Notes under the pieces: generated by a model
The model's database searches: none
Told to the model about the DNA's origin: nothing
Seen by the model: only the letters and a program-made list of their open reading frames with translations
In this document: one piece after another, positions 10,726 to 44,121 of the stretch
Layout: every line of letters starts with the position of its first letter
Numbering within the stretch: position 1 is the first letter of the stretch
Made by a program: the position numbers and the translations under genes
NCBI GenBank assembly: GCA_025361335.1
Contig: JANYAK010000011.1
Span: 2,751-66,750 of the forward strand
Source: Coriobacteriia bacterium
Lineage (GTDB): Bacteria; Actinomycetota; Coriobacteriia; Anaerosomatales; PALSA-660
DNA length: 64,000 bases
Direction of reading: 5' to 3'

Positions 10726-10763
10726 GATGAGGGCCGGCGACAGCGTTCGCGCCGGCCCTCATC
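10726..10763 (+). terminator. Stem-loop terminator after acs
   Basis: Perfect 14-bp stem, gatgagggccggcg / cgccggccctcatc, 34 nt after the acs stop, with no U tract. Confidence 0.55.
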
Positions 10764-10846
10764 GCGTGCGGCCCGCGCGGCGAGTGCGGGCATCCGTGCT
10801 GATACACTGGCCGGGTACGCACGCCGAGGGAAAGGACCGCTGGCAC

Positions 10847-11893
10847 ATGTCGAAGACAGGGGTTCTGCTCACCGCTTTCGGCGCTCCGCGGGGGCTCGAG
10901 GATCTCGATGCATTCCTCTTGGCTGTCTCGGGCGCGGCGCCGACGGCCGACACGCTGTCGGTCGAGCGGCGCAAGCTGCTCACGATCGGGGGAGGCTCAC
11001 CGCTGCACGCCGGGGCCGAGAGGGTCGCGGCGCAGCTTGAGCGCCGCCTCAGCGGGTTGCCTGCCGCGGTGGCCACTCCCGGCGAGGACGACGGGCTTGG
11101 CTTCGGGCTCCCCGGAGCGGACGCGATCGTGTCGCGATCGCTGCGGACGCTTGGGGAAGTCGTCGCCCCCGTCGAGGTAGGCATGCTGTACGGGAACCCG
11201 AGCATGGCCGAAGCCGCGCGTACCCTCAAGGAGAGGGGAGCCGAGCGGATCGTCCACGTCCGCCTGTCGCCGTTCGGATCGGCGATGTCGGACGAGGGGT
11301 GGCTCGAGGCAGTGGCGGGAGCCGTCGAGGGAGCGGGCGTGGAGTGGTCGGACGCTCCCGGTTGGGGCACGACGGACGGATTCGTCGCGTTGGCGGCCGA
11401 CGCGTGCATCGCCGCGCGCGAAGAGCTGCCCGGCGAGGCGCGGACTCTGGTCGTCTTCGTGGTGCCGAGCCCGGCTGGAGCGAGGACGGGCGGCGGACCG
11501 GTTCGGACCGACGCCGAGGACGCGGCGGCGCGGGTCGCCGCGCTCTGCGGACTGGGGCCGGTGACCGTGGGCGGGGCGGGCCTGGCCGGCATTGCGGGGG
11601 TCGGCGGATCCGCCGGCAAGTCGCCGTGGCTGATCACCCTTTCCGGCGAGGCGGACGGAGCCGAGGGTGAGCTGCTCGGGATCATCGACGCGGCAGCCGC
11701 CGGGGCGTTCGCGGCGGTGGAGGTGTGCCCCATGGGGTGGATCGTCGCGGACGCGTGGACCGCATACGACCTCGACGTGATCGCGGCCGAGCGGGCGTTC
11801 GGGCTCGACATGGACTTCGGTCGCTCCCGCGTCCCGGGAGAGGAGCCGGCGATGATCGAGGTGCTCGAGCGGGCGGTGCGGCAGAGCGCCTGA
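10847..11893 (+). CDS. Ferrochelatase-like (class II chelatase fold) protein, divergent
   Basis: The N-terminus GVLLTAFGAPRGLEDLDAFL...IGGGSPL follows the ferrochelatase pattern. The central and C-terminal regions are Ala/Gly-rich and poorly conserved. Start set at the ATG at 10847. Confidence 0.45.
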   Translation: MSKTGVLLTAFGAPRGLEDLDAFLLAVSGAAPTADTLSVERRKLLTIGGGSPLHAGAERVAAQLERRLSGLPAAVATPGEDDGLGFGLPGADAIVSRSLRTLGEVVAPVEVGMLYGNPSMAEAARTLKERGAERIVHVRLSPFGSAMSDEGWLEAVAGAVEGAGVEWSDAPGWGTTDGFVALAADACIAAREELPGEARTLVVFVVPSPAGARTGGGPVRTDAEDAAARVAALCGLGPVTVGGAGLAGIAGVGGSAGKSPWLITLSGEADGAEGELLGIIDAAAAGAFAAVEVCPMGWIVADAWTAYDLDVIAAERAFGLDMDFGRSRVPGEEPAMIEVLERAVRQSA

Positions 11894-12799: not shown

Positions 12800-13348
12800 T
12801 CAGCGCGGCCCCTTCGTGAACAGGCGTATCGCCTCTAGTATCCGGGCGTCGGGGCCCGCCTCGGCTCGCGGGGTGGGTGTGATGCCGCGCTCGGCCAGGA
12901 CCGTGAGCACGGCTGCGACGGCGGCGGGAAGCGCCGCCTCCACCTCCGGAGTCAGGCCTATCTCGATCACGCTCATGTCCTTGATCTGGATGCCGATGCA
13001 CTCCGCCTCGGGGGTCGAGCCCATGAGCATGGCCGATTGCAGGACGTCCACGAAGCGGATGTCGTGCAGGGAGTGCATGACCTGGTTGTGGGCCAGATCC
13101 TCCGGAGACAGGCGAACGATCGTCCCCGGATCCTCGCCCGTGCCGTCGATCGCGTCGATGACGAGCATGTAGTCGCAGTCCCGGAACAGGTGGAGGATGC
13201 TCATCCCCATCGTGCCGACATCGACCAGCGTGACGTTGTCGGGAAAGGCGAGCGTACCCATCAGGATCTCGATGACGCGGACGCCCACACCCTCGTCCCG
13301 CACGAGCGGGTTGCCCATTCCCATGACCGTGATGCGTTCGGGTGCCAT
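12800..13348 (-). CDS. [NiFe] hydrogenase maturation endopeptidase (HyaD/HupD family)
   Basis: ITVMGMGNPLVRDEGVGVRV, DAIDG and SLHD motifs. The ATG at 13346-13348 has GGAGG 5 nt upstream. It is the last gene of the hydrogenase gene string. Confidence 0.85.
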   Translation of the reverse strand: MAPERITVMGMGNPLVRDEGVGVRVIEILMGTLAFPDNVTLVDVGTMGMSILHLFRDCDYMLVIDAIDGTGEDPGTIVRLSPEDLAHNQVMHSLHDIRFVDVLQSAMLMGSTPEAECIGIQIKDMSVIEIGLTPEVEAALPAAVAAVLTVLAERGITPTPRAEAGPDARILEAIRLFTKGPR

Positions 13349-13426
13349 CGAGCCTCCGTGTGATCGCGCGCGTGCCGACGCTGGATTGTACCGCACGCCA
13401 CCGCGAGCGCGACGCAGGGCCGCGCG

Positions 13427-14743
13427 TCAGGCGGAGGCGCACTCCGCCTGCGGGAGCGGCTGGCCGTCCAAGAGCAGCATCCGCTCAGCCGGGGACAGGG
13501 CGGCGCGTGCCTCGTCGCGCAACTCGTTGGAACCCGACAGCATCTCGCGCATCATGACGACGAGCAGGTAGCGTCCAGCGGGAGTGAGCGTGATGCACTC
13601 GTCGTCATCCCGCTCGATCCCGCCCGCGGCGCGCATGAAGGTCAGCTCAAGCCACAGCGCGCGGTCCGCGGAGACCCCGAAATCGCGTTCGAAGGCGCGC
13701 TTGTCCAACCGGAGGCCGAACAGCTGGTTGATGAAGCGGTAGCGCATCATGGCGCGGGCGTCGTACGGCTGGCCGGCGGTCGCGAGCCCCATGCATCCCG
13801 AGCGTATGGCGGCGTCGTAATCCGCCAGGGAGAACGTGTTCCCGTAGACACGATCGCCGATGAACGACAGCGCACCCGAGCCGATGCCGACGTACTGGTC
13901 GTAGTCGACGATGTACTCATCGATCATGCCGCCGCGGTCCTTCGAGAACGTCCAGGCTGACGCCGGTTCGAAGGTGCCTGAGAGAGCCTCGTCGATGAGG
14001 TGGTAGTACTCGCCTTCGCGCACGAAGTCGATGCGTCCCACGGTATCGGCCAGCGCTCGCGCGGCGTTCGGGCCGGCCATCAGCGGGTAGAAGGTCACCT
14101 GGTTGCAGCCGGTGTCCTTGAGGCGATCGATGTCCGCCAGGAGCATGCGTTCCGTCTGGCTGGGGAAGTTGAAGATCATGTCGACGTTGAGCGAGCTGAA
14201 CCAGCCCTGCGCCCGGACGATCGTCTCGTAAAGGTCCTGCCCGCTGCCATACTTGTCATACCGATCCATGACGCGCAGCAGGCGGTCGTCGAAACTCTGC
14301 ACTCCGACGGACATCCGGTCGATCCGGCCGCCGAGCCGCTCGACCACCTCCGACGTGAGGTGATTCGGGCTGGTCTCCGACGAGACTTCGCCGATGTCGA
14401 AGAGATCGCGCGCCAAGTCGATCGTCAGGCATAGTTCGTCCAAGAGGATGGTGGGCGTGCCGCCGCCGAGGTAGAGCGCGCCGAACCGGTACCCCAGGTC
14501 GGCGACCATGCGCATCTCCTCGCGCAGCCTGGCGAAGTACTGGCGCGCGAGGTCCTCACGATAGAGGAAGCGGTTGAACGAGCAGTAGGTGCACAGCCGT
14601 TCGCAGAACGGGACGTGCGCGTACAGCAGGTACGTCCGCTCGGGATCCGCGGGCGGCAGCGTCGTGAGGCTCGTGGGTTCGTGGGCCATGTAGCGGCGGC
14701 CCAAGACACGCATTGCAGCTGTCAGCGCGCGTTCGGAGAGCAT
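13427..14743 (-). CDS. HemN/HemW-family radical SAM protein (oxygen-independent coproporphyrinogen oxidase-like / heme chaperone-like)
   Basis: HVPFCERLCTYCSF (CxxxCxxC) and GGGTP motifs with a HemN C-terminal-like domain. Start at ATG 14741-14743 with GGGAG upstream. Confidence 0.8.
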   Translation of the reverse strand: MLSERALTAAMRVLGRRYMAHEPTSLTTLPPADPERTYLLYAHVPFCERLCTYCSFNRFLYREDLARQYFARLREEMRMVADLGYRFGALYLGGGTPTILLDELCLTIDLARDLFDIGEVSSETSPNHLTSEVVERLGGRIDRMSVGVQSFDDRLLRVMDRYDKYGSGQDLYETIVRAQGWFSSLNVDMIFNFPSQTERMLLADIDRLKDTGCNQVTFYPLMAGPNAARALADTVGRIDFVREGEYYHLIDEALSGTFEPASAWTFSKDRGGMIDEYIVDYDQYVGIGSGALSFIGDRVYGNTFSLADYDAAIRSGCMGLATAGQPYDARAMMRYRFINQLFGLRLDKRAFERDFGVSADRALWLELTFMRAAGGIERDDDECITLTPAGRYLLVVMMREMLSGSNELRDEARAALSPAERMLLLDGQPLPQAECASA

Positions 14744-14944
14744 GCTTGGACTCCCTGACAAAACATCGTAGGTACCGTGGGAGCGTCGCCCGGCAGCGTC
14801 ACCCTCTCCACGTGGTCCTTCTTCTGCATGAGGGGCTCGAATCCTGCCCCGCCACACGGCGGGAGGCCCGAGGAATAGCTCCCCGGACCTCCCGCTCCAG
14901 TGGCGACCGTCCCCTCGATCGGGGTCCGATCCACCACAGAGGCT

Positions 14945-15604
14945 CTAGTGCCCCTCGGGCTTCGTCTCGACCCAGGCGAACATGATCTTGGTCGGAGCGA
15001 TGCCGTGGATGTTCGCCAGGTACGCGTGCACCATGGTGAACACGATGATGATCCACATGCCGAAGTAGTGGATCATCCGCATTGCCATCAACCCGCCGAC
15101 AGCCGCGGTGCCCGCGTTGAAGAACGGCGCCAACGCCCAGTGCTGGGCGGGACCGTACAACGCGAACCCGGTGTAGGCCATCGCGTACGTGATCGGGATG
15201 GTGGCCAGGTAGGCGGTCTTCTGCAGGGAACCGTACTTCCCTGAGATGACGTGTTCCTTGCGAAGGAACAGGTAGTACTTCACGGTCTCCAGGAACTGAT
15301 GCTTGTTCTCCTTCTGAGGCAGCCAGTTCTTGATGTCGGTATCGACAACGTTGGATCCGAGGAGCAGCGCATCCTTCACCCAGAAGGAGAGGATGATCCG
15401 CGCCGTCAGGTTGATGATCAGGATGAACATCAACATGAAGTGGATCGAACGGGCCAGGCCCATGGACCAGACGAAGAACGGGTAGTGGATGAAGAAGCCC
15501 GTGAAGGCCAGACCGATCATCGAGATCAGGTTCACATAGTGAGTGAACACGAAGATCAGCGGATGCGCGGCACGGTAGTGTGCGTGTTGGGACATACCAC
15601 TCAC
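14945..15604 (-). CDS. Ni/Fe-hydrogenase b-type cytochrome subunit
   Basis: 219 aa with four TM helices and conserved His residues (HPLIFVFTHY, SIHFML, HYFGMWIIIVFTMVHAY), directly after the large subunit. An alternative ATG start lies at 15595. Confidence 0.85.
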   Translation of the reverse strand: MSGMSQHAHYRAAHPLIFVFTHYVNLISMIGLAFTGFFIHYPFFVWSMGLARSIHFMLMFILIINLTARIILSFWVKDALLLGSNVVDTDIKNWLPQKENKHQFLETVKYYLFLRKEHVISGKYGSLQKTAYLATIPITYAMAYTGFALYGPAQHWALAPFFNAGTAAVGGLMAMRMIHYFGMWIIIVFTMVHAYLANIHGIAPTKIMFAWVETKPEGH

Positions 15605-17235
15605 CTGCCTGCGGGCTTGGACATCACGAACGACTGCTTCTTAGTCTTGGGTTCTATCAACTGAACCCCGCATCCGATTCAAGGATCGAAGCTATGGACG
15701 ATCCGGAGCGCCTCGAGAGGCTTCTCGATGTCGGCGATCGGAGTGCCCACGAGCGCTTCCTCCAGCGGACCGCGGACGCCTGCCGCATCGCGCGGCGAGC
15801 AGTCCCACGTCGACGGGGAGACGACCTGATAGTTCGCTATCTTGCCGTCCTTGACGTCGATGAAGTGGCCGAGCGCGCCACGCGGCGCCTCCCACAGACC
15901 GGCACCCTGGCCGTTGGTCTCGGTGGGCTCGGTGAAGAACTTCGCGTCGCCGCCCTTGACGGCGCCGATGAGCTCCATGATCCACTCGCCCATCTTGTCG
16001 GCCACGAACTTGGCCTCGAGGTTGCGCGCCGCGAGGCGGCCGAGCAGGGAGATGAGCACCTCGGGCTTGCCCGCGACGCCGAGCGCCGTGAGCGTCGTGT
16101 CGACGAGATCCTTGACCTCGGGCACGCCGGCCAGATACGACACGAGCATGCGCGAGAGAGGCCCGGCTTCCATGGGCTTCTCGTCCAGGCGCGGAGCCTT
16201 GATCCACGAGTACTGGGCGTTCGTGTCGTACGAGGTGAACTTCGCCTGAGTCTGTCCCTGCGCCGGGTTGAGGCCGGAGGGCGACGAGTACCACGAATGC
16301 TCGACATACTCCTTGATCTTCGCCACGTCGGGCTGGACAAGCTCCAGCTTGCCGTCGAGGATCGCGCCTCGCGGCATGACGCGCTTGAGCGGGTCGAGGC
16401 TCTTGTCCTCGAACACACCCCATGAGAGGAAGTTCTTGACGCCGCCGCCATAGGTCGCGGCCTCGATGTAGAACGGCGCGATCGCCAGCGTGTCGGGGAT
16501 CAGGGCGTTCGTGATGAACTCGCTGACCGTCTTCCAGCGGAAGAGCACGTCATCGAGCTTCTCCTCGGTCGGCATCCATGCGGTGCCGCCGGGAATGGAC
16601 GTCATGAAGTGCGGGAACTTGCCGCCCATGACCGCGATGATCGCCGCGGCCTCGGCCTGTATCTCGAGCGCCTGGAGGTAGTGCGCCACGGCGATGAGGT
16701 TGAGCTCCGCCGGAAGCTTCATGGCGGGGTGACCCCAGTAGCCGTTGGTGAAGATGGAGAGCTGGCCACCCTCGACGAACGTCTTCAGCCGCTTCTGGAT
16801 CGCGCCGAAGTCGGCGACGGCCGTGCCGGCCTTCTCGGCCAGAGCATAGGTGTCGGCGATATTGGCGGACAGCGCGGACACGACGTCGACGTAATCGAGC
16901 GCCGTGAGCGTGTAGAACCACAGGATGTGGCTGTGGAGTGTCTCCGCACCCTCGATGATGTTGCGCACCAAGCGCGCGCCGTCGGGCGGGGTGACCTTGA
17001 GAGCGTCCTCCGTCGCCTTGGTGGAGGCGTGACCGTGGGAGATCGGGCACACGCCACAGATGCGCTGCGAGACGTAGTACGCATCCGCCGGCGCGCGACC
17101 CTTCAGTACGGTCTCCATGCCGCGGTAGAGACTGCCTGAGGACCAAGCGTCGGTGATGACGCCGTTCTCGACTTCGCACTCCACGCGCAGGTGACCTTCG
17201 ATTCTGGTAACGGGATCGATGATCGCTCTAGCCAC
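15601..17235 (-). CDS. [NiFeSe] hydrogenase large subunit (group 1), with in-frame TGA = selenocysteine at 15679-15681
   Basis: RIEGH and RICGVCPISH N-terminal Ni-ligand motifs are present. The track ORF stops at TGA right after RIVHSFDP. Continuing in frame gives U-IGCGVQ-LIEPKTKKQSFVMSKPAGR and a stop at 15601-15603, completing a DPUxxC site. That stop abuts the cytochrome b start. Confidence 0.8.
15649..15668 (-). promoter_or_regulatory. Candidate SECIS stem-loop
   Basis: On the mRNA, GGGUUC-AGUUGAUA-GAACCC forms a perfect 6-bp stem with an 8-nt loop, starting 10 nt after the UGA. Confidence 0.5.
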
Positions 17236-18383
17236 TAGTTATCGCCTCCCTTCGAGGCCTTGTGCTTCTTGTCCCACGCCTTCTCGGTCTCCATCGGAGG
17301 GCCGGACGTGCGTCCGGTCGCCGCGGAGGCGATACCGTGGACCAACAGACCGGCCGCGGCGGCAGCACCGACGACCGTTCCGACCGTCTCGGGGCGAACG
17401 CCGCCGAGACCGGGCAGATTGACGTCGGTCATGCGGCTCAGGAACGGCGCACTGGCGTCGACCCAGTTGGTGTAGACGTGACCGCAACCGATGCACGGCG
17501 AACCGGACTCGACGCACCAGCTGGCGCGACGGTTCCAACGCACGCTCGGACAGTTGGTCATGGTCTGCGGGCCCTTGCAGCCCATCTTGTACAGACACCA
17601 CTGCTTGACCTCGGCCTCGGTCCCGAAAGCCTCGACGAACTCGCCGTTCTCGAAGTGGCCGCGGCGCGGGCAGTTGTCGTGGATCGTGGAGCCGAAGATC
17701 AGGGTCGGGCGGTTCTTGTCGTCCATGGCCGGCAGCTTGCCCAGCAGCAGGACGTCGACGACCATCGCCACGATCCACTCCGGGTTGACCGGGCAGGTCG
17801 GCAGGTTGATGGTCTTGGCCTTGAGCTCGGGCATGACATCCAGAACGCCCTTGCCGCCGGCAGGGTTCGGAGCAGCGTTGACCCAACCGCCGTCCACCGC
17901 GCAGGACCCGACGCAGATGATCGCGTCGGCCTTGCCGGCGGCCTCCTTGAGGATCTCGAGCCCGGTCTTGCCCGCGATGCGCAGCGTGTTGCCGCCCTCG
18001 CCGGTCATGATCGCGCCCTCGACGACGAGGACGTAGCCGCCGTCGGCGATCGTCTTGGTCCTGGCCTCTTCCGCCTGCGTGCCGGCCGCGGCCATGATCG
18101 TCTCCATGTAGTTCACTGACAGCAGGTCCAGCACGATGGACGCCACATCGGGCGTATCCACCTGAGCCAGGGACTCGGTGCAGCCCGTGCACAGGCCCAT
18201 GTCGAGCCACACGGTCGGCTTGAGCTTGGCACCCGCTTCGACCGCCGATACGATCTGCGGAGCGTACATCTCGGACAGGCCGAGCAGCGCAGCCACCGAC
18301 CCGCAGTACTTCACGAAGTCGCGCCGCGACACACCCCGCGCTGCGAGGAGATCGTAGATCCCGTCTCGCACTCCTTGCGCCAT
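17235..18383 (-). CDS. [NiFe(Se)] hydrogenase small subunit, Tat-exported, C-terminal membrane anchor
   Basis: SRRDFVKYCGSVAALLGL twin-arginine signal and CTGCTES. Distal and medial cluster motifs are HDNCPRRG, CLYKMGCKGP and CPSVRWNRRASWCVESGSPCIGC. The ATG at 18381-18383 has AAGGAGG 8 nt upstream. Confidence 0.9.
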   Translation of the reverse strand: MAQGVRDGIYDLLAARGVSRRDFVKYCGSVAALLGLSEMYAPQIVSAVEAGAKLKPTVWLDMGLCTGCTESLAQVDTPDVASIVLDLLSVNYMETIMAAAGTQAEEARTKTIADGGYVLVVEGAIMTGEGGNTLRIAGKTGLEILKEAAGKADAIICVGSCAVDGGWVNAAPNPAGGKGVLDVMPELKAKTINLPTCPVNPEWIVAMVVDVLLLGKLPAMDDKNRPTLIFGSTIHDNCPRRGHFENGEFVEAFGTEAEVKQWCLYKMGCKGPQTMTNCPSVRWNRRASWCVESGSPCIGCGHVYTNWVDASAPFLSRMTDVNLPGLGGVRPETVGTVVGAAAAAGLLVHGIASAATGRTSGPPMETEKAWDKKHKASKGGDN

Positions 18384-19039
18384 CCCATACACCTCCTTGC
18401 GAAGCAACGAAAAACTTCAGTCACGTGCTCGCCGACCTCCCGCCCGTTCGGGGCAGGCGGTCCTCCCTCAGCCCCTTGCCCTCCTTTCCTGCACACACGC
18501 ATATCTCGCACAACTTTGGGCCACGGCGCCAAGACGCCGCCCGCGCCGATACGAGATCGACGGGCGGGCGGCGCGGGCCGGAACGGGCAGGGGGGCGGCG
18601 CGCCACAGCGCGCGGTGTTCGGGCAGACCTGCCCGGGGGATCATTCAAGTACCGCCCGCGACAGTGGGCCGGACGAGTCGAGCATGCCCGGCCCTGGAAG
18701 GGCGTGTCTCCCGGGTATGGTGATCGGACAGTGCGATCGAGTCGGTCCCCATGGCCCCTCGTGGATCGGCTTCGCGGTCAGGCACTGGATTGAAGTCTGA
18801 AACTTGTGGGCCTCCGAGACAATACCATTCCTCGTACGGCCTCGACCACGATGATACCTCGCCTGCGGCCAGATGGTGCATGCATGAGGAAAGGTGGTCA
18901 ACGGGGCGGCGGCAGCAGGAAGATCGGTGTAGGCGCCGAATACCGTCCATGTCGTCGCGCGGGACACCCGACCAGCGGGGATGTCGGCGCGGTCGGAGGA
19001 GGGAGGGTGAGGGTGTCAGCCGCATCGAGCGGGCTCGTG

Positions 19040-35729: not shown

Positions 35730-36752
35730 TTGTTCTTCCGGATGATCGAGAAGGAGCGGCTACCGGACCTGATCCGGGGGCTCTCGACCGAATTCGAGGT
35801 GGTCGGCCCGGTGGCGAAGGGGGACAAGTTCGTGTTCGCCCCCATCGACGACCCCGCCGACATGCGGTTGGACTACGACACGACCATCCTGCCCCCGAAG
35901 AAGTGGTTCTTCCCGCCTGAAGAGACCATGATGCGGTTCCGGGTCGCGGACAACGAGGTCGTCGACGACGAGGTCTACGCGCCTCCCCGCGTGCTGTTCG
36001 GGCTGCACCCGTGCGATATCAACAGTCTCCAGCTGATGGACAACGTCTTCTTCGGCGCGTACATCGATCCCTACTATCGCGCGCGCCGCGAGAACACCCT
36101 GATCGTCGGCCTGTCGTGCGTGCCTTCGGAGACGTGCTTCTGCAACGCATGGGGCACCGACGAGGCTCACTGGGGCTTCGACATCTTCCTTTCCGACGTG
36201 GGCGACGAGTACTTCGCGTCCATCCGCTCGGTCAGCGGCGCGGAGCTCGTCGACCGCCACGTGAAGACGCGTGAGATCACCGACAATGACACGCGGCGAT
36301 TCCAGGAGCGCACGGCCGCGTTCAAGGCGGCGTTCGAGAACCACGTGGACACGTCGCAGCTGCCGCTTCTCATCGATGCGAAGTTCGAGTCCCCGATCTG
36401 GGACCAGTTGGGCGAGAAGTGCCTTGCCTGCGGCGCGTGCTCGATGGTGTGCCCGACGTGCTACTGCTACGACGTGCACGATGAGCTCGAGCCCGACCAG
36501 ACGATGGGCCGCCGCGTGAGGACGTGGGACAGCTGTCAGTTCAAGGACTTCGCGGCGGTCGCGCACGGCCAGAACTTCCGCGACTCGCGGGCCAGCCGGA
36601 TCAAGTACCGCTATTACCACAAGCAGTGGGGGTACCTTTCGAAGTTCGAGCGCGTCCTGTGCGTCGGGTGCGGCCGTTGCTCTCGGGCGTGCAAGGCCGG
36701 CATCAATCCCGTGAAGGTCATCGAGGCTCTGCAGACAGGGGTGGTGTCCTGA
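35730..36752 (+). CDS. hydB: Group 3b (sulfhydrogenase-type) hydrogenase beta subunit, 4Fe-4S protein (AsrA-like)
   Basis: CLACGACSMVCPTCYCYD and CVGCGRCSRACKAGI. It is the first of four coupled genes in the order beta-gamma-delta-alpha. Confidence 0.75.
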   Translation: MFFRMIEKERLPDLIRGLSTEFEVVGPVAKGDKFVFAPIDDPADMRLDYDTTILPPKKWFFPPEETMMRFRVADNEVVDDEVYAPPRVLFGLHPCDINSLQLMDNVFFGAYIDPYYRARRENTLIVGLSCVPSETCFCNAWGTDEAHWGFDIFLSDVGDEYFASIRSVSGAELVDRHVKTREITDNDTRRFQERTAAFKAAFENHVDTSQLPLLIDAKFESPIWDQLGEKCLACGACSMVCPTCYCYDVHDELEPDQTMGRRVRTWDSCQFKDFAAVAHGQNFRDSRASRIKYRYYHKQWGYLSKFERVLCVGCGRCSRACKAGINPVKVIEALQTGVVS

Positions 36753-37630
36753 TGGGCGGCGTACCCAGGAGCACCATCGCCCCGGGGGATCGGACGTCGG
36801 CGGGAGTCAATCCGTACCGCCCCTGGCCGGCGCGCATCACGTCCATCATCGACCTGACGCCGCAGGAGAAGCTGTTCGAGCTGAGGCTCATCGACGAGGG
36901 CGCCCGCGCTGCGTTCGACTTCGATTCCGGACAGTTCGTCGAGCTGTCGATCTTCGGCGTGGGCGAGGCCCCGATCTCGATCTCGAGCGCGCCGTCGAAG
37001 CAGGGCTTCATCGAGCTGTGCGTGCGCAACGCCGGCGACGTCACCGGCGCCCTGCACCGCAAGCAGTGCGGCGATGTGGTCGGTCTTCGCGGCCCGTTCG
37101 GCCGTGGATTCCCCTTCGAGGAGATGAAGGGCCACGACGTCCTGCTGGTCGCCGGGGGCCTCGGCATCGCGCCGCTCAAGAGCCTCATCAACCACATCCA
37201 CGATGACCGTCATGATTTCGGCAACGTGACCATCCTCTATGGCGCCAGATCGCCGGCCGAGATCCTGTTCCGCTACCAGTTCGACGGGTGGAAGCATCGG
37301 GACGACTTCGATCTCATCCTCACGGTCGACCACCCGGACGACACCTGGGAGGGTGACGTCGGTCTGGTCACGAGGCTCTTCGACAAGATCGAGGTCGATC
37401 CCGCCAACGCGTTCGGCGCGATCTGCGGGCCTCCCGTCATGTACAAGTACGTGATCGCCGAGATGCGCAAGAAGGACATGGACGTCGACCGGATCTACGT
37501 CTCGTTCGAGCGGCGGATGAAGTGCGGCGTCGGCAAGTGCGGGCACTGTGGGGTCGGCCACCAGTACACATGCATCGACGGACCGGTATTCAACTACTGG
37601 GAAGCCATGAACCTGCAGGAGGCGATATAG
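36752..37630 (+). CDS. hydG: Group 3b hydrogenase gamma subunit (FAD/NAD(P)-binding, 2Fe-2S)
   Basis: Ferredoxin-reductase-like fold (GQFVELSIFGVGEAPISI, LLVAGGLGIAPL) with a C-terminal CGVGKCGHCGVG. Its ATG overlaps the preceding TGA. Confidence 0.8.
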   Translation: MGGVPRSTIAPGDRTSAGVNPYRPWPARITSIIDLTPQEKLFELRLIDEGARAAFDFDSGQFVELSIFGVGEAPISISSAPSKQGFIELCVRNAGDVTGALHRKQCGDVVGLRGPFGRGFPFEEMKGHDVLLVAGGLGIAPLKSLINHIHDDRHDFGNVTILYGARSPAEILFRYQFDGWKHRDDFDLILTVDHPDDTWEGDVGLVTRLFDKIEVDPANAFGAICGPPVMYKYVIAEMRKKDMDVDRIYVSFERRMKCGVGKCGHCGVGHQYTCIDGPVFNYWEAMNLQEAI

Positions 37631-38374
37631 ATGGCGCCGAGAGTCGTCGTCCTTTCTCTGGCCTCCGACTTCGGATGCCAGGTCCAGATCACCAACACGG
37701 AGGATCACCTTCTCACGATCCTTGGGCTCATCGAGCTGTCCTACTGGCAACTCGCGTCGTCGGGCCACATGCCTGACGAGTACGACGTCGCGATCGTCGA
37801 AGGCGCGGTCACGACCGACGAGCACGCTCACCTTCTGAGAGACGTGCGCGGCAAGGCGGCGGTGGTCATCGCGATCGGCGCGTGCGCCACCATTGGCGGC
37901 ATCCCCGCCCTTGCGGGCTCCGGGTCGCTCGCGGATCGATACGCCACCGTATACGGCGACGGCGTCATCGTCCCGGCGGTGCGCAGGGCTCCGGCCCCCG
38001 TCGACTCCGTCATCCACGTCGACTACCACGTTCCCGGCTGTCCTATCGACCAGAGCGAGTTTCTCCGAGTGCTGTCGCGCGTCCTTCTGGGGCTTGTGGA
38101 CCACACGCCGGACATGACGATGTGCGGGTCATGCAAGATCGCCGAGAACGTGTGCTTCTTCGACAGCGGGGTCGGCTGCCTCGGACTCGTCACGCGCGCC
38201 GGCTGTGGCGCGAAATGCCCGTCCCTCGGCCGACCGTGCACGGGCTGTCGCGGCATCGCCCCCGATGCCAACGTCGTGTCCGCGCTCGAGGTCTTCGAAC
38301 GCGCCGGCGGTGGCGCCGACGCCCTGCGCTCCGCACTCGATGTCTACAACACCGCTTCGGAGGTGCACGTCTGA
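37631..38374 (+). CDS. hydD: Group 3b [NiFe] hydrogenase small (delta) subunit
   Basis: LASDFGCQ, GACATIGGIP and HVPGCP motifs plus a C-terminal Cys cluster CGSCKIAENVCF...CLGLVTRAGCGAKCPSLGRPCTGC. Confidence 0.8.
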   Translation: MAPRVVVLSLASDFGCQVQITNTEDHLLTILGLIELSYWQLASSGHMPDEYDVAIVEGAVTTDEHAHLLRDVRGKAAVVIAIGACATIGGIPALAGSGSLADRYATVYGDGVIVPAVRRAPAPVDSVIHVDYHVPGCPIDQSEFLRVLSRVLLGLVDHTPDMTMCGSCKIAENVCFFDSGVGCLGLVTRAGCGAKCPSLGRPCTGCRGIAPDANVVSALEVFERAGGGADALRSALDVYNTASEVHV

Positions 38375-39636
38375 TGGCGAACCTGACCGTCGAGCACGTC
38401 GCTCGGATCGAGGGGCACGGCAACATCTCTGTGAGCGTCGAGGAGGGTGTCGTCCGCGACATCCAGATGGACGTCGTGGAGCCCGCGCGGTTCTTCGAGT
38501 CGATGGTGGTCGGCCGACGCTTCGAGGACGCGCCTCTGATCACGTCCCGGATCTGCGGCATCTGCTCCCCCAACCATGCGCTGACGTCGATCAAGGCGGT
38601 GGAGGCGGCGTTGGGAGTCGAGGTCTCCGAGCGCACCAGACTGCTTCGCACGCTGCTGGTGTACGGCTCGTATCTCCAGAACCACGCGACACATCTGTAC
38701 GTGTTCGCCGCTCCGGACTTCGTGGGACTGCCCAATATCTTCCCGCTCGCGCAGACGCACCCCGATGTCGTGGGCCGGGCACTCAAGATCAAGAAGCTCG
38801 GCAACGAGCTGTGCAACCTCGTGGGCGGGCGTTCCGTCCACCCCGTGACGGCCGTTGTCGGCGGGTTCACGTCCGAACCGAGCAGCAGAGACCTGTCCGC
38901 CATGCGCGCCCGGTTGCGAGATATCGTCGGCGACGCTCTGGCGACCGTGGATCTGTTCGCGTCGTTCAAGGTGCCGGACTTCGATACGGCGGGCGAGATG
39001 CTCGCTCTGACCTCGCCGACGGAGTATGCGATCTACGACGGCGACGTCACGGCGCTCGACGCCGGTTGGACCCGCCCGGCGGCCGACTATCACGACACCC
39101 TGCGTGAGAGCATCGTCGGCCACAGCAACGCCAAGCATTCGACGGTCGGCGGCAGGCCCTTCCTTGTGGGAGCGGTGGCCCGGATGAACCTGAACGCGCA
39201 GCGTCTGGGTGCTCGGGGGCGAGACGCACTCGAGGCCTCCGGGCTGGTGCTGCCCACGCGCAATCCGTTTCACACGCACGTGTGCCAGGCCGTCGAGCTC
39301 GTCGACGCGGCGGAGCGGTGCGCTGGCTACATCGACCGACTGATCGGTTCTGACGGGTCGTCGGAGCCTGTGGCCGTCGACGTTTCGGCCGGCACCGGTG
39401 CCGGCGCCACGGAGGCGCCCCGCGGCACGCTGTACCACTCGTACTCGATCGGCGATGACGGTCTCATCACGAAGGGCGACGTCATCACCCCGACGGCGCA
39501 GAACCTCGCGAACCTCGAGGCGGACATGAGGGCGTTCGCCCCTACGGTCGCCGATCGGCCGAGGGAGGAGTTCGTGCTCCTGATCGAGGAGCTGGTCCGC
39601 TCGTACGACCCATGCCTTTCCTGCGCGGTCCACTAA
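38374..39636 (+). CDS. hydA: Group 3b [NiFe] hydrogenase large (alpha) subunit
   Basis: VARIEGHG, RICGICSPNH and the C-terminal SYDPCLSCAVH, followed directly by TAA. Confidence 0.85.
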   Translation: MANLTVEHVARIEGHGNISVSVEEGVVRDIQMDVVEPARFFESMVVGRRFEDAPLITSRICGICSPNHALTSIKAVEAALGVEVSERTRLLRTLLVYGSYLQNHATHLYVFAAPDFVGLPNIFPLAQTHPDVVGRALKIKKLGNELCNLVGGRSVHPVTAVVGGFTSEPSSRDLSAMRARLRDIVGDALATVDLFASFKVPDFDTAGEMLALTSPTEYAIYDGDVTALDAGWTRPAADYHDTLRESIVGHSNAKHSTVGGRPFLVGAVARMNLNAQRLGARGRDALEASGLVLPTRNPFHTHVCQAVELVDAAERCAGYIDRLIGSDGSSEPVAVDVSAGTGAGATEAPRGTLYHSYSIGDDGLITKGDVITPTAQNLANLEADMRAFAPTVADRPREEFVLLIEELVRSYDPCLSCAVH

Positions 39637-39803
39637 ACGATGGACGCGCGTCGCGCGTGATGGTTGAATGACTCAATCCCGACGCGACAGGGCTGAAGGA
39701 ACATCGTCGCCGACGACGAATAGTGGGGAATACCATCCGGCCCGAGGGGGCGCGGAGGCCAGGATCCTGCGATAGCGGTCGGCGAGCAAGCGGCATGACA
39801 ACG

Positions 39804-39833
39804 GCGCTCTCCGCGCATATCCGCGGAGAGCGC
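39804..39833 (+). other. Perfect 12-bp GC-rich inverted repeat/hairpin in the hyd-rnf spacer
   Basis: gcgctctccgcg-catatc-cgcggagagcgc, ending 43 nt upstream of the rnfC start. Confidence 0.6.
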
Positions 39834-39875
39834 TGGCGCCCTAAGACATGTTCTTCCGACGAGAGGGGTGAGCAC

Positions 39876-41189
39876 TTGGCGGTTCGGTTGTTCCGGGGCG
39901 GGGTGCATCCGCCGGACCGAAAGGAAGCGACCGCTTCCCAAGCCGTCGCTCGGGCGCCGCTGCCCGAGCGCATCGTGCTGCCGATGAGCCAGCATCTCGG
40001 GGCGCCGTGCCAGCCTCTGGTCGCCAAGGGCGATCGGGTGAGCCGAGGCCAGGTGGTCGGGTCTGTCGACGCGATGATCAGCGCGCCCGTCCACTCGCCG
40101 GTCTCCGGTGAGGTCGTCGATGTTGCGAAGGCGCTCACACCCAGCGGGGCGCGCGTGATGTGCGTCCACATCCACCCCGATGCGGACCAGGACCTCGCGA
40201 CGTTCGTGCCCATAGACGCCGCTGCCGACGATGTGGCCGCCATTGCTCGCGCGGCCGGAGTCGTCGGACTCGGTGGCGCCGCGTTTCCGACGTCGGTGAA
40301 ACTCGTGCCGCCGAAGCGCTCGCCGATCGACACGCTCATCCTCAACGGCTGCGAATGCGAGCCGTTCCTGACATGCGATCACCGGGTGATGATCGAGAGC
40401 GCCGACGCCGTCGTGGCGGGAGCCGCGCGGATCGCATCCGCAGTGGGCGCGAAGCGTGTCGTCGTCGGTGTCGAGGACAACAAGCCCGACGCCTTGGAAG
40501 CCCTGCGCAAGGCAGTGTCGGAGGCCGGGGCCGACATCGAGACGGTCGGCCTTCCGACACGATATCCCCAGGGCGCGGAGAAGCAGCTCATCTTCGCGCT
40601 CACGGGCCGAGTCGTGCCGCAGGGGCAACTGCCCTCGTCCGTGGGCGTGCTCGTCCACAACGTCGGCACCGCGGTCGCGATCCACGAGGCCGTCGCGTCG
40701 CGCAAGCCGCTCATGGAGCGGGTCGTCACGGTCGCGGGGGCGGTGGCTCAGCCGGGCAACTTCCTGGTGCTACTGGGCACTCCCATCTCCGACCTGATAG
40801 AGGCGGCGGGCGGGCTCGTCGGAGACGTCGGGCGCATCGTCGCCGGCGGGCCGATGACCGGGCAATCCCTCGCTTCGCTCGACGTGCCCGTCGTGAAGGG
40901 GACGTCCGGAGTCGTCGTTCTGACCGCCGAGGAGTCGGCGCCGCATGTCGACGGCGATCAGCCATGCATCCGTTGCGGGCGCTGCGTCGAAGCCTGCCCG
41001 ATGGACCTGCACCCCTTCGCGATCGCGTCACATGCCGACCGGCGCATGTGGTTCGGCGTCGAGCGCTTCCATGGCCTGGACTGCATCGAATGCGGTTGCT
41101 GCAGCTACGTGTGCCCGACCCGAAGGCCGCTGGTCCAGCTGATCAAGTCGGGCAAGTCGGCCCTGATGGTGAAAGGGGTGAAGCGGTGA
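39876..41189 (+). CDS. rnfC: Rnf electron transport complex subunit C
   Basis: RLFRGGVHPP N-terminus and GLGGAAFPT. Ferredoxin motifs CIRCGRCVEACP and CIECGCCSYVCP. TTG 39876 has GAGAGGGG upstream. Confidence 0.9.
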   Translation: MAVRLFRGGVHPPDRKEATASQAVARAPLPERIVLPMSQHLGAPCQPLVAKGDRVSRGQVVGSVDAMISAPVHSPVSGEVVDVAKALTPSGARVMCVHIHPDADQDLATFVPIDAAADDVAAIARAAGVVGLGGAAFPTSVKLVPPKRSPIDTLILNGCECEPFLTCDHRVMIESADAVVAGAARIASAVGAKRVVVGVEDNKPDALEALRKAVSEAGADIETVGLPTRYPQGAEKQLIFALTGRVVPQGQLPSSVGVLVHNVGTAVAIHEAVASRKPLMERVVTVAGAVAQPGNFLVLLGTPISDLIEAAGGLVGDVGRIVAGGPMTGQSLASLDVPVVKGTSGVVVLTAEESAPHVDGDQPCIRCGRCVEACPMDLHPFAIASHADRRMWFGVERFHGLDCIECGCCSYVCPTRRPLVQLIKSGKSALMVKGVKR

Positions 41190-42241
41190 GCGATCGGTCC
41201 AGTCCCGCGGGAGTCGCCGCCTCACACGTCGTCGGGCCGGCTCCCCACATCGCCGCGCCCCTCAGCTGCCGACACATCATGCTGTGGGTCATCGCGGCTC
41301 TGGCGCCCGCCGCTCTGTGGGCGATCGGGAACATGGGCGCGCCCGCCATCGTCACTTTCGGCGTCGGCATCGGCTCGTGCGTTCTCACGGAGTTCGCATG
41401 GAACGCGCTCCTCAAGCGCACGCAGACCATCGGCGACATGTCCGCGGTCGTCACGGGCATGCTTCTGGCGATGTCGGTCCCCCCACGCACTCCCTGGTGG
41501 ATCTGCATGGTGGGCGGCATCGTGGCCATCGGTCTCGCGAAGATGCTCTTCGGTGGGCTCGGGTTCAACCTGTTCAATCCGGCACTCGTCGGCCGCGCCA
41601 TCGTCATGATGTCGTGGCTGGGGGTCATGTCGGAGATCAAGACCCCTGCGGGCGTCCCGGCTCCCGGAGGCTGGTTCGCGGCGTTGTCCGTGCCCGCCTC
41701 CGGCAAGCTCGACGCCATCAACGGCGCGACGCGGCTGGCCATCGCCGCCGCGGACCGAGCCGGCAACGGCGGATATGCGTACGATCTCGCGAAGCAGTAC
41801 GGACCGTTGCTGCTGAGGAACCTCGAGGGCTCGCTCGGCGAGGTGTCCGCGGGGCTGCTGATCCTGGGTGGGCTCGTGCTGCTGGCCCGCGGCATCATCG
41901 ATTGGCGCATACCGGTCGGCTACATCGGGTCCGTCGCCGCGCTGTCGTGGGCGTTCGGCTCCGACCCCATCTTCAATGTGCTCGCTGGAGGCGTGCTCCT
42001 CGGGGCGTTCTTCATGGCCACCGACTACGTCACATCCCCGATCACCCGCAACGGGCGCCTCGTGTTCGGCATCGGGTGCGGGGTCTTCAACATCGTGACG
42101 CGCTTCTTCGGACCGATGCCCGAGACGACCACGTTCGCGATCCTGTTCATGAACGGGCTCGCCCCGCTGATCGACCGCATGTTCATGCCCAAACCCTTCG
42201 GCTATCTCAGGCCCGCGAAGGCGGTGAAGGCAGATGCTTAG
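41186..42241 (+). CDS. rnfD: Rnf complex subunit D
   Basis: Polytopic membrane protein with GGLGFNLFNPALVGRA and FFMATDYVTSP (FMN attachment region). GTGA overlap with rnfC. Confidence 0.9.
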   Translation: MSDRSSPAGVAASHVVGPAPHIAAPLSCRHIMLWVIAALAPAALWAIGNMGAPAIVTFGVGIGSCVLTEFAWNALLKRTQTIGDMSAVVTGMLLAMSVPPRTPWWICMVGGIVAIGLAKMLFGGLGFNLFNPALVGRAIVMMSWLGVMSEIKTPAGVPAPGGWFAALSVPASGKLDAINGATRLAIAAADRAGNGGYAYDLAKQYGPLLLRNLEGSLGEVSAGLLILGGLVLLARGIIDWRIPVGYIGSVAALSWAFGSDPIFNVLAGGVLLGAFFMATDYVTSPITRNGRLVFGIGCGVFNIVTRFFGPMPETTTFAILFMNGLAPLIDRMFMPKPFGYLRPAKAVKADA

Positions 42242-42839
42242 GCTCTACATGAGGCTCGGGATCCCTGTGCTGGTCGTGTGCATCGTCGCCGCGGCCGGCC
42301 TCGGTGTCACCTACGCCATGACGAAGGACAAGATCGCCGCCCAGGACCGCGAGGCGAAGGCGAAGTCCTTGCGCATCGTCCTGGGGCGTGCGAAGTCCTT
42401 CGTCGAGCTCGACGCGAAGAAGGACGCCGTTGTCTACGAGAAAGCCACGGCGGCCGCGGTGGACGTCCGTGTCGACGGTCTGTTCCGCGCCCTCGACGGC
42501 ACCGGCGCCCAGGTCGGTTGGGGCCTGCTCGTGGCTCCCCGCGGCTACGGCGGACCGATCTCGATGGCTGTCGGCGTGGATAGGAACGGGAAAGTCACTG
42601 GCGCTACGATCGCGTCGATGAACGAGACGCCGGGTCTCGGCACCAAGGTGATCACGCAGAAGGACTGGCTGCCACGGTTCTCCGGACTGGACACGTCGGC
42701 AGGGACCGAGTCGGTCAGGAAGATCGACACGATCATGGGCGCGACCAAGTCGTCACGCGGGGTCCGCAAGGGCGTCGGGGCGGCCGCGGCCATCTACACG
42801 GATGTTCTCAAGAGTCTTGAAGGGGGGAGCGGGCAGTGA
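42234..42839 (+). CDS. rnfG: Rnf complex subunit G (FMN-binding)
   Basis: N-terminal TM helix, ETPGLG and ATKSSRGV (covalent-FMN Ser/Thr context). Confidence 0.85.
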   Translation: MLRLYMRLGIPVLVVCIVAAAGLGVTYAMTKDKIAAQDREAKAKSLRIVLGRAKSFVELDAKKDAVVYEKATAAAVDVRVDGLFRALDGTGAQVGWGLLVAPRGYGGPISMAVGVDRNGKVTGATIASMNETPGLGTKVITQKDWLPRFSGLDTSAGTESVRKIDTIMGATKSSRGVRKGVGAAAAIYTDVLKSLEGGSGQ

Positions 42840-43486
42840 AGGAGTGGATGAGAGTCCTGAGAAACGGCCTGTCGCTCGAGAACCCGCTCACCGTGCTGAT
42901 GATCGGACTGTGCTCGACGCTCGCGGTCTCCACGAAGCTCGAGGGTGCCTTCTTCATGGGCATCGGCGTGATCTTCGTGCTCGTCATGAGCAACGTGCTC
43001 ATCGCCGCCGTGCGCAAGTTCACACCCGACGAGGTGCGCATCCCGATATTCATCGTGATCATCGCGTCGTTCGTGACCATCGTCGACCTCGTGATGAAGG
43101 CGTACCTGCCGAGCGTGTATTCGTTCCTGGGTGTGTGGATCCCGCTCATCGTGGTCAACTGCATCGTCTTGGGGCGCGCGGAGGCCTTCGCCTATCACAA
43201 CACGGTGTGGCTCTCGGTCGCGGACGGCATCGGCATGGGCCTCGGCTACACGGTGATCATCGCCGGGCTGGCCGCCTTCCGCGAGCTGTTCGGGAGCGGA
43301 CAGCTGCAGTTCCTCGGGGCGACACTGGTGACCATGCCGGCCTTCTACCGGCCGCCCAACATCCTGTTGCTCTTCCCGGGCGCCTTCATCCTGTTCGGGC
43401 TGATCATCGCCGGATCGCAGGCGCTGAACCGCCGGATCGCGGCGAAGGACGCGGCGCAGGCTGCTTCGCTGAAGGAGGCGGTGTGA
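42836..43486 (+). CDS. rnfE: Rnf complex subunit E
   Basis: NPLTVLMIGLCSTLAVS and GVWIPLIVVNCIVLGRAEAFA motifs. Confidence 0.9.
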   Translation: MKEWMRVLRNGLSLENPLTVLMIGLCSTLAVSTKLEGAFFMGIGVIFVLVMSNVLIAAVRKFTPDEVRIPIFIVIIASFVTIVDLVMKAYLPSVYSFLGVWIPLIVVNCIVLGRAEAFAYHNTVWLSVADGIGMGLGYTVIIAGLAAFRELFGSGQLQFLGATLVTMPAFYRPPNILLLFPGAFILFGLIIAGSQALNRRIAAKDAAQAASLKEAV

Positions 43487-43487
43487 G

Positions 43488-44108: not shown

Positions 44109-44121
44109 GAGGGAGGCGGAT

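Follow-up and report, generated by a model that had tools for sequence, protein, structure and literature searches.

A candidate [NiFeSe] uptake hydrogenase of Coriobacteriia with an in-frame UGA at a nickel-ligand position

The 64 kb stretch of DNA analysed here, which we call the window, carries on its minus strand an operon of hydrogenase genes at 12800–18407. The first gene (17235..18407, start uncertain) encodes a [NiFe] hydrogenase small subunit, which scores 331 bits on TIGR00391 (hydA, cut-off 179.5) and has a Tat signal at residues 26–55 (TIGR01409, 24.7 bits, cut-off 16.7). The large-subunit gene follows, and its GTG start overlaps the small-subunit stop by one base. Next to it lies the gene of a Ni/Fe-hydrogenase b-type cytochrome, the likely membrane anchor and quinone reductase (14945..15595), with 104.3 bits on TIGR02125, below the cut-off of 121.5. 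A HemN-like radical SAM protein of the coproporphyrinogen III oxidase family (13427..14857; NF006385, 485.6 bits, cut-off 355) is encoded between the cytochrome b and protease genes and may be linked to the haem supply for the cytochrome. The operon ends with a HyaD/HybD-type maturation endopeptidase (12800..13396, start uncertain), which scores 128.8 bits on TIGR00072 (cut-off 47.45) and 116.2 bits on TIGR00140 (hupD), below the cut-off of 151.8.

The large subunit is found as an ORF of 518 codons (15679..17235, minus strand) with a GTG start and the C-terminus ...EALRIVHSFDP, followed by TGA at 15681–15679. Past this TGA the same frame stays open and reads IGCGVQ and then LIEPKTKKQSFVMSKPAGR, closing at a second TGA at 15603–15601, just as the sequence-only reading had described. 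We suggest that the full gene spans 15601..17235, with 544 codons including that of the proposed Sec519 (15679..15681) and the true TGA stop at 15603–15601. In the extended product the Ni-Fe ligand positions are Cys60 and Cys63, within the N-terminal RxCGxCxxxH motif (RICGVCPISHG), and Sec519 and Cys522, within DPUIGCGVQ. The in-frame UGA stands at the place of a Ni-ligand cysteine (DP-TGA-IGC), namely the first Cys of the C-terminal DPCxxC Ni-binding motif; the proposal that it occupies this place is borne out by its alignment with residue 489 of the D. vulgaris HysA U489C variant. The residue after CxxCxV is Gln in the window protein, where His or Arg is usual.

The last 19 residues of the extended product (526–544, translated from 15604..15660, minus strand) form a tail, presumably a propeptide that would be cleaved off. 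Such tails are 19–24 residues long in all members of the Sec-type clade described below and 15–16 in Cys-type homologues. A HyaD-type protease had been expected to find a tail to act on, and the extension supplies it; since the maturation protease of the operon needs a C-terminal tail, its presence supports the extended product. The second TGA lies within AGGTGAGTGGTATG, where a GTG at 15604 overlaps the stop and the cytochrome b ATG at 15595 follows 5 nt after it. The anticipated closeness of the extended stop to the cytochrome b start is found likewise in relatives. In an 85%-identical one (L081) the gene order is the same, small subunit, large subunit and cytochrome b, and the cytochrome b orthologue, which has PF01292 (Ni_hydr_CYTB), starts 5 nt after the extended stop. 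This stop-to-start junction is conserved only for the extended frame.

The extended product aligns over its full length to [NiFe] large subunits, with E = 9e-142 to 3myr_B for residues 3–524. The read-through codons align residue for residue with solved enzymes, CIGCGVQLIEPKT against CIACGVHVIEPET of 1frf and CLGCAVHV of 5jsu, and in every group 1 structure compared the TGA stands opposite the first Cys of DPCxxC. When the product was aligned to [NiFeSe] and Cys-type group 1 large subunits, as the sequence-only reading had proposed, the C-termini matched through CxxCxV and beyond. Judged from these alignments, the match of the 26 read-through codons to hydrogenase C-termini is far beyond chance.

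Among the NCBIfam models the best-scoring one is NF033181 (NiFeSe_hydrog), a curated equivalog model for a nickel-dependent hydrogenase large-subunit family. It aligns residues 3–534 to model positions 3–504 of 507, and the likeness is full-length and includes the C-terminal motif, the Sec-clade proteins being about 35–55 residues longer than the model. The extended product scores 532.4 bits and the ORF ending at the TGA 507.2 bits, both below the cut-off of 600 bits, and two further members of the clade (L014 and L007) score 521 and 515 bits, also below it. The Cys-type protein L015, which branches in the tree as sister to the Sec clade, is a member of the family with 643 bits. The HysA-type model NF045518 covers only residues 152–528 and gives 442.4 bits against a cut-off of 780.

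The distribution of the codon among homologues is sharply divided. TGA is present in 25 of 25 sequences at least 61% identical to the window protein (22 unique, the window included; the 24 relatives, 21 further unique sequences, come from Coriobacteriia-type MAGs and metagenomes), and TGC or TGT in all 133 more distant homologues (at most 55% identity). Homologues with Cys opposite the UGA thus exist, and the sequence is conserved on either side of it. In a neighbour-joining tree the 24 unique Sec-type proteins form one clade. The downstream frame is intact in all TGA sequences, with no stop or frameshift before the cytochrome b start. The motif xGC[GA]V[HQ] after the TGA is kept in the protein, and all four bases occur at column 9, the third base of its Gly codon. 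It had been noted in advance that close homologues ending at DP-stop, with an unconserved downstream frame, would speak against Sec; what we find is a conserved frame with varying synonymous sites. Cys-type homologues exist, as had been supposed: besides the 133 outside the clade there are two full-length Cys-type proteins inside it (P0135 and P0136), 75% identical to the Sec-type L014, which continue into the same C-terminal tail, ending in GTVYSRKWG.

These data bear on three other explanations of the TGA. One is that sequencing or assembly turned a TGC or TGT into TGA, one base away; nothing specific points to such an error, the same TGA recurs in 22 unique sequences from independent assemblies (NCBI MAGs, ENA, JGI metagenomes), and we regard its probability as negligible. 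Alternatively, the TGA could be a real stop that leaves a non-catalytic 518-residue large subunit, a pseudogene or regulatory remnant, with the downstream likeness decaying. Gene callers do end the ORF at the TGA in every TGA-type database entry inspected, and the 64 kb window shows no sign of Sec machinery. However, an intact, protein-conserved frame follows the TGA in 22 unique sequences of 61–100% identity, which vary synonymously and have no frameshifts, and the junction with cytochrome b is conserved for the extended frame only. Moreover, with two of its four metal ligands missing, the product would be unable to bind Ni-Fe, and the operon retains the protease and the Tat small subunit. 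We therefore hold a real stop to be very unlikely.

The third explanation is a split gene as in Methanococcus voltae VhuA/VhuU, in which the C-terminal ligands would reside on a separately initiated small peptide. VhuU, counted among the Sec-containing hydrogenase subunits (PMC13188914), is a precedent, and a TTG codon occurs inside the tail. Yet the stretch from the TGA to the Cys522 codon contains neither a start codon nor a ribosome-binding site, and a peptide with its own start would therefore be without the CxxC residues. The break also falls exactly on the ligand codon, and the in-clade Cys-type orthologues are single continuous proteins. This arrangement appears extremely improbable to us.

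We suggest that the UGA is read as selenocysteine, and the RNA just downstream of it is consistent with this. A SECIS-like hairpin, GGGUUC-AGUUGAUA-GAACCC (15649..15668, minus strand), begins its 5′ arm 10 nt past the UGA and carries G-U at positions 2–3 of the loop, which are nt 22–23 counted from the U of UGA. The window hairpin folds with −9.5 kcal/mol (z = −3.65), and none of 200 shuffles folds as well. A hairpin at this position is found in 22 of 22 unique Sec-type sequences; folding energies of the hairpin run from −9.4 to −10.4 kcal/mol. In the alignment of these sequences pairing holds in 98% of cells, compensatory G-C to C-G swaps are seen at two of the seven pairs (9 cells), and the covariation score is reached by none of 500 shuffles; in the lower helix 77% of cells are paired and there is no covariation. 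In the two in-clade TGC (Cys-type) genes the hairpin has decayed to −4.4 and −2.1 kcal/mol. The Sec-type sequences of the clade, the window gene among them, thus have a stem-loop just 3′ of the UGA with a fully conserved G at position 1 or 2 of the apical loop, which agrees with the bacterial SECIS consensus (PMC13582414).

Not every test of the hairpin is informative. A stem of at least 6 bp occurs at the same place in 32 of 124 unique Cys-type homologues, mostly Gemmatimonadota, and Sec-type and Cys-type genes are not significantly different in the overall folding energy of the downstream 45 nt (p = 0.14). The fold of the whole 106 nt around the site shows no excess stability (z = +0.41), and Rfam, searched with E up to 10 on 15560–15720, returned noise only, with no SECIS family among the matches. 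Information came solely from the test for a hairpin at this exact position and from the count of covariation. Because the hairpin shares its sequence with conserved codons, coding constraint accounts for part of its conservation. The window has the weakest form in the set, with 6 bp, an 8-nt loop and neither a lower stem nor a bulged U. Like the E. coli fdhF-type SECIS, the clade hairpin is a stem-loop within the coding sequence immediately 3′ of the UGA. In the E. coli element the spacing is 11 nt and the G-U lies at nt 23–24. Unlike it, the clade hairpin has no bulged U and a loop of 6–8 nt rather than 4, and the lower stem is weak or, in the window, absent.

Any recoding that depends on a SECIS would be equally compatible with the conserved frame and the hairpin. 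The UGA could thus be recoded as Cys by a tRNA(ReC)-type tRNA via SelB and the SECIS, or be read as Cys or Trp by near-cognate read-through, giving an ordinary [NiFe] site or a mixed population; tRNA(ReC)-like tRNAs do occur in genomes with Sec-type hydrogenases (PMC13582414). However, keeping UGA and a SECIS by purifying selection just for Cys would be uneconomical when TGC would do, and the in-clade Cys-type genes simply went to TGC and lost the hairpin. Canonical Sec decoding is, in addition, documented in Coriobacteriia. We give recoding to an amino acid other than Sec a small chance of being correct.

Selenocysteine insertion would imply selABCD elsewhere in the genome. In all six frames of the window and in the fetched loci L001–L081 we found no SelD ([C/U]GCK), SelA PLP-site or SelB G1 motif. 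ARAGORN and Rfam found no tRNA-Sec in the window, where they gave only a tRNA-Arg, and no tRNA in loci L001–L014. A scan of the window for coding segments joined by an in-frame TGA gave ordinary adjacent genes only and revealed no further selenoprotein candidate. The Sec-decoding trait is documented in the class, for example in Eggerthella lenta and Slackia heliotrinireducens (PMC5029168 supplement). The view of the sequence-only reading that Sec would be unusual in a high-GC Gram-positive therefore stands only in part, given this documented decoding and the NiFeSe family as the nearest NCBIfam model.

Taken together, we consider it highly likely, from the sequence features described, that the operon encodes an H2-uptake hydrogenase whose large subunit is a selenoprotein ([NiFeSe]), with the UGA at 15681–15679 specifying Sec. 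Against this reading count the lack of Sec machinery in the window and the fetched loci, the NF033181 score below cut-off and the Gln at the expected cleavage position. By its genes the enzyme is of a kind already known, a cytochrome b-linked group 1 [NiFeSe] hydrogenase, here in a lineage, the Coriobacteriia, for which our literature search for selenocysteine with Coriobacteriia or with group 1i hydrogenases found no report.

Two known systems are close to it. HysAB of D. vulgaris Hildenborough and Desulfomicrobium baculatum (HydDB group 1a; PDB 2wpn, 5jsu, 1cc1) shares the Sec position in DP-U-xx-C, and in each system the small subunit carries a Tat signal, a C-terminal tail is present and a HyaD-family protease is dedicated to the enzyme. 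The window protein is nevertheless distant from HysA, with 342 bits to 5jsu against 470–477 bits to Cys-type group 1b/1e enzymes. Unlike HysAB, the window operon has a cytochrome b membrane anchor, it comes from a Coriobacteriia-type actinobacterium and not from a sulfate reducer, and the residue after CxxCxV is Gln instead of the His of HysA.

The other system is HydDB group 1i, “Coriobacteria-type” (Anaerosoma tenue, Parvivirga hydrogeniphila), to which the window enzyme probably belongs according to our comparison. Anaerosomatales isolates grow on H2, and their operon consists of the large and small subunits, cytochrome b and a protease (PMC9686372). The window operon has the same gene content: a Tat small subunit, large subunit, cytochrome b and maturation protease. 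The taxonomy agrees too, as the database matches are named Coriobacteriia or Anaerosomatales and the G+C content is about 67%, and a group 3b hydrogenase co-occurs, as in A. tenue. In HydDB, [NiFeSe] variants appear under groups 1a, 3a and 3c alone, and selenocysteine is not mentioned for 1i (PMC5037454); the isolate paper makes no mention of selenocysteine for the group 1i hydrogenase (PMC9686372).

We propose the following route from gene to function. The operon would give a membrane-bound, outward-facing uptake hydrogenase made of the Tat-exported small subunit, the large subunit and the cytochrome b anchor, with the maturation protease at hand. During translation of the large subunit, the stem-loop that begins 10 nt 3′ of the UGA, with G-U in its apical loop, would recruit SelB carrying Sec-tRNA(Sec), and the UGA at 15681–15679 would be decoded. 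A further 25 codons would then be translated, to the real stop at 15603–15601. Sec519 would replace the terminal Ni-ligating cysteine (DP-U-IG-C) and form a [NiFeSe] site together with Cys60, Cys63 and Cys522. Once the metal is inserted, the HyaD-type protease would cut off the 19-residue tail. In the mature enzyme electrons would pass to quinone through cytochrome b.

At the level of the clade we favour, with some reserve, a broader reading, namely an unrecognised group of cytochrome b-linked [NiFeSe] uptake enzymes in Coriobacteriia (OPB41/Anaerosomatales-like, probably HydDB group 1i), in which Sec-to-Cys switching is in progress and a Gln sub-lineage possibly has altered processing. The switching is suggested by the in-clade TGC genes with their decayed SECIS. 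In one sub-lineage, which includes the window, the C-terminal His is replaced by Gln. In solved [NiFe] structures the protease cuts at this His, which also serves as a metal ligand in the mature C-terminus; processing may thus be altered in the Gln sub-lineage. That Sec arose here from Cys independently of the other [NiFeSe] enzymes was also considered, and abandoned because the Cys-type sister L015 belongs to NF033181; with L015 in a NiFeSe-named model, Sec could be ancestral to both lineages.

The finding has a practical side. Among the best 238 distinct matches of two protein searches, all but the two Cys-type proteins stop at the TGA, and almost all cover only about 92–95% of the extended queries. 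The database proteins are thus without two of the four active-site ligands, and metabolic reconstructions and hydrogenase classifiers use partial proteins for this lineage.

Last, a 2026 review describes [NiFeSe] hydrogenases as exclusive to sulfate reducers and methanogens (PMC13188914), and Sec-type variants of group 4 hydrogenases have been reported (PMC13582414). Together with those variants, the clade would make the [NiFeSe] trait wider than the review states and, if the reading is true, would extend H2 oxidation that depends on selenium beyond sulfate reducers and methanogens. [NiFeSe] enzymes are prized for their oxygen tolerance and high H2-production activity (PMC13582414), and the clade would offer a natural Sec/Cys pair for comparison. 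In Coriobacteriia of the subsurface and of peat, a quinone-linked [NiFeSe] enzyme would link H2-driven respiration to selenium supply.

The 518-codon ORF at 15679..17235 on the minus strand terminates with ...EALRIVHSFDP and a TGA (15681-15679 in the minus-strand reading). Beyond this codon the same frame continues with I-G-C-G-V-Q-LIEPKTKKQSFVMSKPAGR up to a second TGA (15603-15601) inside AGGTGAGTGGTATG, and the ATG of the next gene (15595) lies five bases downstream. The sequence-only reading had described the gene end in this way, with the extended stop at the cytochrome b start, and the minus-strand sequence matches it exactly. The N-terminal motif RICGVCPISHG is intact, hence read-through gives a 544-residue product whose four Ni-Fe ligand positions are Cys60, Cys63, Cys522 and the TGA-encoded residue 519. 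With Cys written for the TGA, this product aligns over its full length to solved [NiFe] large subunits (E = 9e-142 to 1e-139), and the alignment passes unbroken through the C-terminal motif into the tail. When the last 99 residues are used as the query, CIGCGVQLIEPKT is aligned with CIACGVHVIEPET of 1frf and, in 5jsu (D. vulgaris Hildenborough [NiFeSe] enzyme, variant U489C), with CLGCAVHVLHAES. Therefore, the TGA occupies the known selenocysteine (Sec) position, in line with its earlier placement at the first Cys of the C-terminal Ni-ligand pair, as in Desulfovibrio [NiFeSe] enzymes.

The NCBIfam and Pfam scans identify, all on the minus strand, a Tat-signal small subunit (17235-18407), the large subunit (15601-17235), a Ni/Fe-hydrogenase b-type cytochrome (14945-15595), a HemN-like radical SAM protein (13427-14857; NF006385, 485.6 bits) and a HyaD/HybD-family maturation endopeptidase (12800-13396), the last being the HyaD-type protease that had been noticed near the hydrogenase. 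Together they make up the operon of a group 1 uptake hydrogenase that is anchored in the membrane and faces outward. L081, a relative with 85% identity on a contig of 2.67 Mb, has small subunit, large subunit and cytochrome b in the order of the window, and here too 5 nt separate the cytochrome b ATG from the extended stop, not from the TGA. The HemN-like gene separates that of the cytochrome b from that of the protease, and a ferrochelatase-domain protein is encoded nearby (10727-11893, plus strand); both may help to supply the cytochrome b subunit with haem. In L081 the slot of the HemN-like gene is taken by a methyltransferase and other genes. At 15707-17388 (plus strand) L081 also encodes a second small subunit of a hydrogenase (374 aa); the next gene is not that of a large subunit but of a HycI-family protease, and a 549-residue ORF without a Pfam match lies upstream of the pair on the other strand.

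The comparative sample, drawn from one scan of species-representative genomes, one of metagenome contigs and L081, comprises 158 large-subunit C-termini, the window's own included. TGA is found at the position of codon 519 in 25 of them (22 unique), all with an identity of 61% or more to the window protein, from JGI metagenomes and MAGs named Coriobacteriia, Coriobacteriales, Actinomycetes and "Eubacteriales". The remaining 133, from WOR-3, Nitrospirota, Nitrospinota, Desulfobacterota, Gemmatimonadota and others, all have TGC or TGT and are at most 55% identical. An unconserved downstream frame in close homologues, which the sequence-only reading had counted against itself, is not what is observed: in 25/25 TGA sequences the frame stays open for 25-30 codons and encodes x-G-C-[GA]-V-[HQ] and a recognisably conserved tail, with its stop at, or within about 10 bases of, the cytochrome b start. 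At the third position of the Gly codon that follows the TGA all four nucleotides occur while the residue is invariant, which is the pattern that purifying selection leaves in translated sequence.

When 131 unique proteins are placed in a neighbour-joining tree, all 24 unique Sec-type sequences (TGA at this position) group as one clade, whose sister is the Cys-type (TGC/TGT) pair L015 and L017. A protein search seeded with L014, the most divergent Sec-type member, retrieved two full-length Cys-type proteins 75% identical to it, P0136 (locus L162, 1696-3399) and P0135 (L163, 379-2079). Their motif is DPCTACCVH, with an extra Cys beside the second ligand, and their sequence ...SFDPCTACCVHV...GTVYSRKWG.. 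has the same tail as that of their Sec-type neighbours. The tail therefore belongs to the protein, whatever the recoding argument.

A SECIS-like hairpin is present in 22/22 unique Sec-type sequences, with its 5' arm 10 nt past the UGA in most. The usual stem is 7 bp (GGGUUCA/UGAACCC) with the loop CGUGAU; that of the window is 6 bp with the loop AGUUGAUA. Loop positions 2-3 are G-U; with the U of UGA as nt 1, these are nt 22-23. In the E. coli fdhF element the spacing is 11 nt, with G23 and U24, so that the G-U here is one base nearer the UGA. The isolated window hairpin has -9.5 kcal/mol (z = -3.65) and the other Sec-type variants -9.4 to -10.4 kcal/mol. In an alignment of 21 sequences the upper helix is 98% paired, and 2 of 7 pairs (9 cells) switch from G-C to C-G, and in each switch one of the two base changes is synonymous and its partner alters the amino acid. 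The observed covariation score is reached by 0/500 shuffles, and slid-partner controls collapse. Conservation of the hairpin has to be read with the caveat that it overlaps conserved codons. Bulk folding energy does not separate the Sec-type and Cys-type groups. In the in-clade TGC genes L162 and L163 the hairpin is decayed (-4.4 and -2.1 kcal/mol), an apparent Sec-to-Cys reversion with SECIS loss. In bacterial SECIS elements the consensus places a G first or second in the loop (PMC13582414).

Of 124 distant Cys-type genes, 32, chiefly from Gemmatimonadota, have a comparable stem at this place. In L051, L065, L068, L072, L114, L123, L124, L130 and others of this phylum it is a 7-8 bp hairpin 9-10 nt past the TGC codon, the position of the Sec-clade SECIS (e.g. 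GGCGTCCA-CGTGC-TGGACGCC). Such hairpins may be SECIS fossils or pre-adaptations, or may simply follow from the codons used for G-V-H-V-L-D-A; the same phenomenon is described for group 4 enzymes (PMC13582414).

Residue 525 (15661-15663, minus strand), after CxxCxV, is Gln, not the near-universal His. His is found here in 150/158 sequences and Gln in three Sec-type (the window, L081 and L001) and five Cys-type homologues; in all of these Gln replaces the His/Arg with which the mature protein normally ends. In solved enzymes the protease cleaves at the C-terminal His, which is also a ligand of the Mg/Fe site. The tail has 19-24 residues in the Sec clade versus 15-16 in Cys-type homologues. The unusual details are the Gln, the longer tail and the in-clade Sec/Cys switch accompanied by SECIS decay.

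We infer Sec decoding in the organism of the window. The only tRNA within the 64-kb window is a tRNA-Arg, Rfam gives no other match there, and no SelA, SelB or SelD motifs were found within it. Pfam annotation of about 40 further window ORFs gives housekeeping genes (MreBCD, PBP2, RodA, RNase E/G, L21, Obg, ProB/ProA, EF-G, acetyl-CoA synthetase), and also a group 3b-type hydrogenase and an Rnf cluster. In the selenium-trait table of the PMC5029168 supplement a '+', which we take as the Sec trait, stands against Eggerthella lenta DSM 2243 and Slackia heliotrinireducens, which are credited there with 3 and 7 selenoproteins, respectively.

The second hydrogenase (35730-39636, plus strand) is of the group 3b, sulfhydrogenase-like type, with a Fer4_22 beta subunit (35730-36752), an NAD-binding/DHODB Fe-S gamma subunit (36524-37630) and a small delta subunit (37631-38374). 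Its large subunit ends ...SYDPCLSCAVH-TAA; being Cys-type and lacking any C-terminal tail, it contrasts with the Sec-type group 1 enzyme of the same genome. Directly downstream is the Rnf cluster (39723-45030, plus strand): RnfC (39723-41189), an unassigned ORF that is presumably RnfD (41284-42252), FMN-binding RnfG (42234-42839), two Rnf-Nqr membrane subunits (42836-44108) and a polyferredoxin RnfB-like protein (43942-45030). Some bacteria have RnfC as a selenoprotein (PMC5029168 table), but no in-frame TGA is seen in that of the window.

The best curated model for the extended product is NF033181 'NiFeSe_hydrog', at 532 bits below its 600-bit cut-off; two other Sec-clade members score 515-521 bits, and the Cys-type sister L015 passes with 643 bits. 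The HysA model NF045518 gives 442 bits (cut-off 780), and solved HysA chains at most 342 bits versus 470-477 bits for Cys-type group 1b/1e enzymes. Hence, the Sec clade is not HysA, and is an un-modelled neighbour of the curated family named for NiFeSe hydrogenases. In taxonomy and operon content it matches HydDB group 1i, "Coriobacteria-type", a type also reported for Anaerosoma tenue and Parvivirga hydrogeniphila, two isolates that oxidise H2 (PMC5037454, PMC9686372). Neither paper mentions selenocysteine, and HydDB lists [NiFeSe] variants for groups 1a, 3a and 3c only (PMC5037454). Our literature search found no report joining selenocysteine with group 1i or Coriobacteriia hydrogenases.

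Almost all of the 238 distinct top database matches cover just ~92-95% of the extended query, thus ending at the TGA; full coverage is reached only by the Cys-type P0135 and P0136. The matches are named simply "nickel-dependent hydrogenase large subunit" (NCBI nr records including MDO8963082.1 and MBW6467943.1), and the TGA-ended relatives among the listed P0001-P0219 are ~502-556 aa long. These records are a systematic annotation gap of the clade.

We conclude that the TGA finding is real and that its interpretation as selenocysteine is very probably right. Both the chemistry and the mechanism of recoding are classical; what is new is the lineage, an architecture linked to cytochrome b, and the fact that such genes are systematically mis-annotated.
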